From: Escherichia coli
Lineage (GTDB): Bacteria > Pseudomonadota > Gammaproteobacteria > Enterobacterales > Enterobacteriaceae
Strand: one strand, 5' to 3'
Length of the DNA: 575 nt
Assembly (NCBI RefSeq): GCF_003334815.1
Contig: NZ_QOWO01000127.1
Shown here: positions 1-575 of the stretch, in pieces
Position numbering within the stretch: position 1 is the stretch's first letter
Layout of the letters: each line of letters begins with the position of its first letter
Notes under the pieces: model-generated
What the model saw: the letters and a program-made list of their open reading frames with translations, nothing else
The model's database searches: none
Told to the model about the DNA's origin: nothing
Translations under genes and position numbers: made by a program

Positions 1-68
1 TTCGCCAGGAACGACCGGAACGCGGCATCATGCGGCGTGGGCGTTGTGGTGTTTTTCTTCTTACTCAC
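1..68 (-). CDS. 5' end of a downstream gene Z (partial, continues beyond the window); hypothetical protein starting M(GTG)-SKKKNTTTPTPHDAAFRSFLA...
   Basis: GTG at 68..66 is preceded by a full-consensus AGGAGG. The frame is open to the window edge. The nearest in-frame upstream stop is TAA at 131..129, and the only other in-frame start candidate before the GTG is a weak TTG at 125..123 with no SD. The other two minus frames stop immediately (TGA, TAA). Not in the ORF track because it is truncated. Confidence 0.5.
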   Translation of the reverse strand, partial: MSKKKNTTTPTPHDAAFRSFLA

Positions 69-132: not shown

Positions 133-399
133 TCAGTGGCAGACCCGCTCAATTTCAAGCGCGCGGAGCAGGTGGCCCCATTCGCTGACTTTCATAGCGG
201 GGATACGCACCCGCTTCTGCTCACTGCAGCGTCTGGCGATATGGCCGCTCATCGCCAGGACGTCCGGGTTAATCTCATCCTGTGCCAGCTCCTGACGTCT
301 GAAGCGGGTATGGCGGTGCAGGGGTTTATTCTCCCGCAGGCACTCTTCACGCAGACGCTTTACATACTCGGCGGTTGCGAAGATAATTGATGGTCTCAT
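133..399 (-). CDS. Hypothetical small basic protein Y, 88 aa, arginine-rich (14 Arg, 10 Glu, 3 Cys, 5 His); possible nucleic-acid-binding or regulatory protein, function unknown
   Basis: ORF-track entry 133..399 (-). ATG at 399..397 is the first start codon in the frame and sits 8 nt after a GGAG Shine-Dalgarno. Codon usage favours CTG, CAG, ACC, CGT, CGC. Same strand as the flanking genes X and Z. About a third of residues are charged, with helix-like amphipathic stretches (TAEYVKRLREECLREN, SEWGHLLRALEIERV). No family recognised by eye. Confidence 0.6.
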   Translation of the reverse strand: MRPSIIFATAEYVKRLREECLRENKPLHRHTRFRRQELAQDEINPDVLAMSGHIARRCSEQKRVRIPAMKVSEWGHLLRALEIERVCH

Positions 400-407
400 G
401 GCATAAT
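399..407 (+). promoter_or_regulatory. Candidate extended -10 promoter element (TGgCATAAT) on the plus strand
   Basis: TG at 399..400, one spacer base, then CATAAT at 402..407 (5 of 6 match to TATAAT), i.e. the TGnTATAAT extended -10 pattern. No good -35: TTGCGA at 375..380 is 21 bp away. A start near 414 would give a transcript of about 80 nt ending at the 466..493 terminator. Motif match only. Confidence 0.2.
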
Positions 408-411
408 CTCC
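408..411 (-). promoter_or_regulatory. Shine-Dalgarno (GGAG) for gene Y
   Basis: Minus strand reads ...CTATGGAGATTATGCCATG; GGAG is the complement of 408..411, with an 8-nt spacer to the ATG at 399..397. Confidence 0.5.
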
Positions 412-465
412 ATAGATAGTGATTGAGATGCCGGACTTCCTGGCGGGGAAGCGCCGGCGGAGAGA

Positions 466-493
466 GGCAGGGTTTATCGCCCTGCCTTTTTTT
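466..493 (+). terminator. Rho-independent (intrinsic) terminator-like hairpin, plus-strand orientation
   Basis: Perfect 7-bp stem GGCAGGG (466..472) / CCCTGCC (480..486) with 6 of 7 G:C pairs, 7-nt loop TTTATCG, followed directly by TTTTTTT (487..493). An A/G-rich stretch (461..465) upstream could extend pairing with the T tract. On the minus strand the hairpin is followed by UCUCUCC, not a U tract, so the canonical orientation is plus. Confidence 0.6.
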
Positions 494-575
494 CATTTCG
501 GACAGCGACGCAGTGCCAGCGCGAGCGCTTTCATCTTCCAGCCTTCCGGCGTGCGGTACATCACCTTCCAGTAGC
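493..575 (-). CDS. 3' end of an upstream gene X (partial, 5' end beyond the window); hypothetical protein ending ...YWKVMYRTPEGWKMKALALALRRCPK*
   Basis: Minus-strand frame is open from the window edge to a TGA stop at 495..493. Codon choice is typical of enterobacterial coding sequence (CTG, GCG, CCG, CGC, CGT, AAA). The other two minus frames in this region are closed or read through the terminator hairpin with rare codons. Too short for the supplied ORF track. Confidence 0.55.
   Translation of the reverse strand, partial: YWKVMYRTPEGWKMKALALALRRCPK

Follow-up and report, generated by a model that had tools for sequence, protein, structure and literature searches.

The ygdA gene of the IncI1 plasmid leading region as a probable early establishment gene with a predicted antisense RNA over its translation start

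The gene ygdA was identified in the window, which is the whole stretch of 575 nt that was analysed. It is probably (roughly 0.6) an early establishment or anti-defence gene of the IncI leading region that would be driven by an Frpo/ssi single-strand promoter at entry and silenced by an antisense RNA after the plasmid has become double-stranded. The gene itself had been catalogued before. The conserved antisense promoter, hairpins, and terminator that accompany its 5' end appear to be new to the literature.

The ygdA/ydfB coding sequence (133-399, minus strand) consists of 88 codons, starts with the ATG at 399-397, ends with the stop codon at 135-133, and encodes WP_001247862.1 (UniProt Q7B1W6). 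The Shine-Dalgarno sequence GGAG (408-411, minus strand), which was read directly from the sequence, is located 8 nt 5' of the ATG. The ORF listing exhibits three ORFs of 83-88 aa that share this stretch on both strands, thus the length of the ygdA ORF by itself is no proof of coding, and its reality is decided by the selection pattern. The dN/dS values of ygdA are 0.05, 0.12, and 0.27 against relatives whose proteins are 99%, 83%, and 58% identical, respectively, and the substitutions in the same three comparisons pile up at third codon positions. All of the 37 divergent family loci that were examined have an unbroken frame. The protein is 100% unchanged in R64, ColIb-P9, IncK2/Z, and IncI-gamma plasmids, even though the DNA of the last three differs by 5-7%. 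The plus-strand mirror ORF was rejected as the true gene since it has dN/dS values of 1.1-1.7 and gains stop codons in relatives. ygdA is a genuine and strongly conserved protein-coding gene. The initial annotation had described a real minus-strand ORF with an ATG and a proper Shine-Dalgarno sequence, and both the GGAG and the dN/dS range agree with that description; its proviso that the mirror ORF might be the conserved one has been settled in favour of ygdA. Its composition of the protein (14 Arg, 4 Lys, 10 Glu, and 2 Asp) was reproduced by our recount, which gives a basic protein with a pI of 9.9 and a net charge of about +6.

The window exhibits a 100% DNA match to IncI1 plasmids. A match to the window is present in 1,341 of the 5,426 complete E. 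coli genomes (~25%), nearly all on plasmids. The IncI-type ygdA was identified on 2,016 PLSDB plasmids and the IncF type on 4,101 plasmids, and the family is carried by > 6,000 of the 72,556 catalogued plasmids. The gene order of the region is illustrated by plasmid pSF-468-2, where ssb, DUF905, parB-like, psiB, and psiA genes are followed toward oriT/nikA by ardA, a spacer of 730 bp, ygcA, ygdA, the Rpn nuclease gene, and a small Rpn-like ORF. Past this ORF lie two opposite-strand genes, the gene of a DUF4942 methyltransferase, and oriT. ygdA is the seventh annotated ORF from oriT in this plasmid and shares its strand with ardA, psiB, and ssb. The window is assigned by sequence to the IncI1 leading region, the first DNA that enters the recipient, and the transferred strand is the template of these genes. 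The earlier suggestion that the neighbourhood is cargo of a mobile element is therefore borne out by the leading region of a conjugative plasmid. The genes ardA, psiA, and ssb of pSF-468-2 (11657-12158, 13214-13935, and 16729-17257, respectively) are annotated as frameshifted pseudogenes, which might reflect true decay or assembly errors.

The window also contains the 3' end of ygcA (493-575, minus strand; partial; a 144-aa gene annotated as phrog_1987 of unknown function, the name being that of the source records) and the 5' end of a gene annotated as a nuclease of the Rpn family (YhgA-like; 1-68, minus strand; partial), which starts with GTG at 66-68. The Rpn nuclease matches NCBIfam TIGR01784 at 2e-53 and RpnA at 3e-96. 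The three genes share one strand as had been noted from the sequence alone, but the array is not very tight since the gap between the ygcA stop codon (493) and the ygdA start codon is 93 nt and that between the ygdA stop codon and the rpn GTG (68) is 64 nt. The 93-nt gap contains no terminator in the sense orientation, and we infer that ygdA is co-transcribed with ygcA.

The spacer upstream of ygcA (pSF-468-2 10928-11656) is one of three dispersed repeats of the leading region, and the other two precede ssb and the DUF4942 gene. Over 681 bp it shares 82% identity with the copy before ssb, and it has homology to each of the two Frpo regions of plasmid F. The transferred strand of this spacer folds into a long hairpin (z = -7.7). 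The Frpo-homologous element is located ~0.5 kb upstream of ygcA-ygdA-rpn. The Frpo/ssi-like repeats of pSF-468-2 were mapped to 8095-8423 (DUF4942), 10981-11614 (ygcA), and 17327-18005 (ssb). A second pair of repeats was identified at 12176-12475 and 19130-19429, before ardA and klcA, respectively. The report on plasmid pESBL (PMC12672017) describes three Frpo-like class 1 single-strand promoters (ssi1-3) as well as class 2 promoters ahead of ardA and of klcA, all of which drive operons that are induced in transconjugants by up to ~500-fold; six operons, including those behind ssi1-3, are stated to be induced. The three repeats and the ardA/klcA pair correspond to these class 1 and class 2 single-strand promoters, respectively. 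With an Frpo/ssi promoter upstream and the transferred strand as template, ygdA should be expressed in the recipient a few minutes after DNA entry and ahead of complementary-strand synthesis.

We have identified an antisense promoter of the sigma-70 type in codons 5-14 of ygdA (359-387, plus strand). It consists of the -35 hexamer TTTACA (359-364), a spacer of 17 nt, and the -10 hexamer GATAAT (382-387), and its predicted transcription start is at ~394. The promoter scan gives 10 of 12 matches to the consensus for this site where 0.1 such sites were expected by chance. Both hexamers are invariant among 11 variants of the IncI complex, and all five third-codon positions within the spacer vary. 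Among 39 family loci, whose protein identity goes down to ~31%, 38 have this layout in the same place, with TTTACA or TGGACA as the -35 hexamer, a spacer of exactly 17 nt, and xAxxAT as the -10 hexamer. The extended -10 TG is present in 33 of the 39 loci. Five of the six loci that lack it have the best -10 hexamers (GATAAT or AATAAT) and the sixth is a mis-anchored locus; this offsetting of the absent TG is compensation of the kind that is typical of real promoters. The shuffled controls attain 9 of 12 matches in only 1.6% of cases and have the TG in 6%. The synonymous sites are constrained as well, where codon 12 ends in T in 39/39 loci and Val13 is encoded only by GTA or GTC. Part of the conservation of the promoter is due to the protein because the promoter overlaps the conserved codons of Ile5 and Val13.

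Two hairpins were identified on the plus strand beyond the promoter. Hairpin A (430-458) is formed by GCCGG (430-434) that pairs with CCGGC (454-458) in the predicted folds, and five of its five pairs exhibit compensatory changes across 30 family sequences. Hairpin B (465-493) is of the terminator type according to its sequence and folds, where AGGCAGGG (465-472) pairs with CCCTGCCT (480-487) and is followed by a run of six T (488-493). It is GC-rich, it is located ~100 nt 3' of the antisense promoter just after the ygcA stop codon, and its stem and T-run are kept throughout the family while its fifth pair covaries from A-U to G-C. No U-run follows hairpin B on the sense RNA, and it is oriented for transcripts of the plus strand. 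A simple terminator scan did not list hairpin B although its 8-bp stem, 7-nt loop, and T6 agree with the criteria of that scan. For both hairpins together, 98% of the cells in the family alignment are paired and 6 of 10 pairs are compensatory, and none of 500 shuffles reached values as high. The counts of G-U against A-C pairs (4 vs 3) gave no answer on which strand of the hairpins is functional.

A candidate cis-antisense RNA of ~100 nt (394-494, plus strand) extends between the promoter and the terminator. This RNA, which is predicted to be made from the promoter embedded in ygdA, would be complementary to the start codon and the ribosome-binding site of ygdA, and it folds at -49.4 kcal/mol (z = -4.5). 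The template of this RNA is the complementary strand, hence the RNA would be possible only after second-strand synthesis. In 696 kb of plasmid DNA, a covariance model (R1) of the element matched the start of each family gene once, always in the antisense orientation, and gave no further copies elsewhere in pESBL, pMS7163B, and F. An orphan copy (71 bits) was observed on a Cedecea contig (L010 9118-9224, minus strand), 1.1 kb downstream of a family gene and with no family ORF after it. A few weak covariance matches were observed as well, two of which (26-29 bits) are located just upstream of the parB-like gene on two Serratia plasmids (L007 998-1108 and L009 3453-3557, both minus strand). The element has no match in Rfam, where the best hit (plus strand, 418-493) scored 17 bits against gathering thresholds of 37-47 (E ~0.3). 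IesR-1 of pSLT was considered as a match and rejected as an unrelated antisense RNA. We found no paper that describes the element, and no mention of it was found in Samuel et al. (2024).

The arrangement resembles FinP/traJ, Sok/hok, and SymR/symE in its predicted RNA of ~100 nt with stem-loops and an intrinsic terminator that is complementary to the ribosome-binding site and start codon, and in having its antisense promoter within the 5' end of the target gene. It differs from these systems in that it exhibits no sequence similarity to them, in that its RNA is a prediction from sequence, in that its target is hydrophilic and basic, and in that sense transcription is proposed to start from a single-strand promoter.

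The YgdA family consists of ~470 clusters at 90% identity in very large protein sets, all from Enterobacterales, and no Pfam domain was found in these clusters. Its hosts include Escherichia, Salmonella, Klebsiella, Enterobacter, Serratia, Yersinia, Erwinia, Hafnia, Providencia, and others. The phmmer and hmmsearch matches to YgdA reach down to 1e-35 on Enterobacterales plasmids. The identical protein is named YdfB in UniProt (Q7B1W6), and some plasmid records use the name ygdA together with ygcA for the upstream neighbour. The IncF version on the 4,101 plasmids has 76 aa and is located directly behind a copy of Frpo, as in pO157. Plasmid F itself lacks a family member. In 35 species-level loci the gene is located 2-4 kb from traM or nikA and shares its strand with psiB, parB-like, ardA, and klcA genes. 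No match to the family was found in phage genomes by DNA or tblastn searches, so a phage origin of ygdA, and with it the proposal of a phage accessory protein in the initial annotation, was excluded. The family is confined to plasmids in the sequence sets that were searched.

By sequence, YgdA belongs to the YdfB/YgdA/YdaB family, which corresponds to family 1 of Samuel et al. (2024) (PMC11541004; Nature 635:186), the largest of the families enriched in leading regions and labelled "uncharacterized" in that work. Family 1 has 4,739 members, a median distance of 6 ORFs from oriT, and T-strand orientation, and it has no DIAMOND or Foldseek match to sets of anti-CRISPR and anti-restriction proteins (PMC11541004). 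The literature search found no work that links ydfB or ygdA to a function. The family had been called unrecognised from the sequence alone, which agrees with the absence of matches in Pfam, NCBIfam, PHROGs, PADLOC, and PDB but has to be amended by the legacy names YdfB/YgdA/YdaB and the listing by Samuel et al. (2024). No well-characterised housekeeping family was matched; a match of this kind had been named beforehand as a result that would overturn the initial annotation.

The AlphaFold2 model of YgdA (124 homologues; pLDDT 82.7) consists of three helices (residues 10-22, 45-59, and 71-84) that are linked by conserved extended segments. The invariant residues across the family are R32, L78, R79, and E82, and the almost invariant residues are I5, V13, H53, I54, V64, P67, G75, L81, and R85. 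At three sites that are nearly invariant in the family, the protein of the window has a non-consensus residue (G52 for R, E60 for K, and V86 for A). The median pI of the family is 10.7. The conserved arginines suggest that the ligand of YgdA may be nucleic acid or a nucleic-acid-handling protein. YgdA has no match in Pfam, either as a single sequence or with the family alignment, and none in NCBIfam, PHROGs, or PADLOC, and the sequence-profile search of PDB gave zero matches at E <= 10. Foldseek searches with the model found only entries of the family itself (YdfB, YgdA, and YdaB) in AFDB50 and nothing under E = 2 in BFVD. The family is without a recognisable fold or a curated family. YgdA was rejected as a known anti-restriction protein (ArdA/Ocr, ArdB/KlcA, or ArdC) as it matches none of them in Pfam, NCBIfam, or PADLOC and, with a pI of 9.9, is not an acidic mimic.

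The cysteines and histidines of YgdA had been listed in the initial annotation, where C20, C58, and C87 are correctly placed, H27 and H29 are actually H28 and H30, and H53 and H76 were overlooked. They do not form a meaningful motif. A zinc-binding Cys/His protein was rejected because only H53 (112/124) is conserved among C20, H28, H30, H53, C58, H76, C87, and H88, and the C20 column is a gap in 122 of 124 family sequences.

A mechanism is proposed in which ygdA is the second gene of a ygcA-ygdA-rpn operon whose three genes have the transferred strand as template. The sense transcription would start in the recipient from the Frpo/ssi promoter while the DNA is still single-stranded. YgdA would most likely act transiently in the new host as an establishment or anti-defence factor, and it might use R32, R79, and R85 to bind nucleic acid or else a nucleic-acid-handling protein of the host or the plasmid. 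It may also support the orphan DNA methyltransferases that come after it on most plasmids. Once the plasmid is double-stranded, the cis-antisense RNA with its promoter in codons 5-14 and its terminator in the upstream spacer would probably shut off ygdA. A bolder version, which we hold only tentatively and consider on balance doubtful, is that the ygdA family and its antisense RNA form an undescribed "entry-only" cassette for a factor of new fold that is transient, possibly harmful, directed at nucleic acid, and used against a host barrier.

Among known systems, ygdA resembles the zygotically induced genes behind Frpo/ssi promoters (ssb, psiB, ardA, klcA, and M.EcoGIX), with which it shares its region, its strand, an upstream Frpo repeat, and its dispensability in the laboratory. 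Its product is related to none of theirs by sequence or fold, and YgdA is basic whereas ArdA is an acidic DNA mimic. The dispensability is known from a transposon screen of pESBL (PMC4288162), where Hp17 was scored as 1.00 non-essential for maintenance and transfer alike and where ardA, psiB, and M.EcoGIX were likewise non-essential. Hp17 is 99% identical to YgdA. In ~21 of 37 loci, a DNA methyltransferase gene (N6 type or DUF4942) is the first or second downstream neighbour of the family gene; this adjacency may be a coincidence because methyltransferases are common throughout leading regions. The nearest one here (DUF4942) is split from ygdA by an rpn cassette that has been inserted between them, and it is preceded by an ssi promoter of its own.

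In Enterobacterales, antibiotic resistance is carried to a large extent by IncI and IncF plasmids, and what such a plasmid expresses during its first minutes in a recipient contributes to the success of transfer. The YgdA family is the most abundant leading-region-specific family of enterobacterial plasmids. A gene that is switched on by a single-strand promoter and off by a double-strand antisense promoter is a concrete regulatory hypothesis. Such an off-switch, if real, would be a new means of confining a plasmid gene to the single-stranded entry phase.

The main alternative to an establishment factor is a module that resembles type I toxin-antitoxin systems, in which YgdA would be a harmful protein that targets nucleic acid (comparable to SymE or RalR), its translation would be blocked by the antisense RNA, and the outcome would be post-segregational killing or an abortive function. 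We consider it improbable, though it accounts for several observations. The conserved antisense promoter and terminator span the translation start, the predicted sense fold would sequester the ygdA ribosome-binding site, insertions in the gene are tolerated as expected of a toxin, and leading regions are enriched in toxin-antitoxin genes. However, the family proteins are hydrophilic and have 76-88 aa, unlike most type I toxins, and the strict location behind single-strand promoters near oriT suits entry better than maintenance. The overexpression of gene '810' of pMS7163B has been reported to give a severe growth defect, but this toxic gene, which is next to ardA, maps to ygcA and not to ygdA. 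The identity of '810' with ygcA is probable, as the mapping was inferred by locus-tag arithmetic.

The fold of the sense RNA (400-495, minus strand) has an MFE of -36.8 kcal/mol (z = -3.9). In this fold, pairing is possible between CUCUC (459-463) and GGAGA (407-411) of the Shine-Dalgarno region and would hide the ribosome-binding site. The stems of this fold are the same in five IncI-type variants, and no compensatory change was seen among them.

A second reading of similarly low probability is that YgdA is a small DNA- or RNA-binding regulator, either a repressor or a chaperone, that would tune gene expression in the leading region or transcription in the host and would not be directed against defence systems. 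YgdA is strongly basic and helical in its model, and YfjB/HerB, another leading-region protein, has recently been reported to reprogram host transcription. A weak HU-type match also favours it, where PF14908 (HU-CCDC81) was reached at E <= 0.001 by 3 of 34 family members, the best being one IncF member at E = 1.9e-5. The likeness is local and covers helix 2 and strand 1 of HU, that is, a helix followed by K-G-x-x-V-x-I-P. An HU/IHF fold was nevertheless rejected for YgdA since the profile comparison by hhalign gave a probability of 1.7%, the protein of the window has no Pfam match, and the model has three helices and no beta-arm. Further against a regulator, no helix-turn-helix or ribbon-helix-helix fold is recognisable, and a tandem-dimer model with a Gly-Ser linker (pLDDT 60.7, pTM 0.35) exhibits no new strand pairing and no confident interface. 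The disruption of the gene also gives no defect in maintenance or transfer. The early establishment factor remains our preferred reading over both the toxin-like module and the regulator.

It is far less likely that YgdA is an antitoxin or neutraliser of a neighbour, either the ygcA product or the Rpn nuclease. ygdA does lie between ygcA, which is probably toxic on overexpression ('810'), and the Rpn nuclease gene, but the family keeps neither neighbour elsewhere. Roughly 30 of 37 loci have a gene of 118 aa (hyp118; L003 5545-5901) upstream of the family member, and neither ygcA nor hyp118 is found there on pO157. The rpn gene has a separate small ORF after it that matches the C-terminus of Rpn, and Hp17 transposon insertions are fully tolerated. 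A type II antitoxin was rejected for the same kind of reasons, where the upstream partner varies between ygcA, hyp118, and none (on pO157), the partners are non-homologous, and Hp17 insertions were scored as 1.00 non-essential. The antitoxin function that had been suggested from the sequence alone is thus unlikely as neighbours differ among plasmids and insertions in the gene are tolerated.

The least probable reading, for which hardly any room is left, is that the ygdA ORF is untranslated and only a non-coding antisense or structured element is conserved: ORFs of similar length overlap on both strands and a conserved non-coding module does overlap the 5' end of ygdA, but that module spans codons 1-14 only, whereas conservation extends over all 88 codons (dN/dS 0.05-0.27 with third-position bias), residues are invariant or nearly so up to position 85, and the frame is intact in 37 divergent loci.

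The neighbours of the family gene exhibit several further features. The ygcA gene (pSF-468-2 10493-10927; L046 23636-24070) is often misnamed "post-segregation killing protein PndC". The hyp118 protein has a C-terminal motif EIYVR.G.RYF; its gene is a near-constant upstream neighbour outside the IncI1 group and is located downstream of the family gene in two Yersinia loci. No match to hyp118 was found in Pfam, PHROGs, or PDB. A remote homology between ygcA and hyp118 was rejected, where the BLASTP comparison was empty and neither has a Pfam or PDB match. The ORF after rpn (pSF-468-2 8909-9154, minus strand) has 81 aa and matches only the C-terminal part of Rpn (TIGR01784, 2e-6). Small C-terminal Rpn proteins have been reported as internal antitoxins of Rpn toxins. 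In pESBL and pMS7163B, an extra gene of 129 aa that encodes an acidic Cys-rich protein is inserted between ygdA and rpn (L040 16517-16906; L046 22711-23100). This gene is missing from the window and from R64, it is widely misnamed "cobalamin biosynthesis protein CbiX", and it was rejected as a relative of hyp118 since it is not hyp118-like.

Two alleles were also observed just 5' of the ygdA start. In comparison with R64, ColIb-P9, and three further loci (L048, L050, and L051), the window differs over 399-435, where the window type has ATG with GGAG and the R64 type has GTG with AAGGAG. The R64-type allele carries ~25 substitutions relative to the window type, both hairpins are kept, and the protein is identical.
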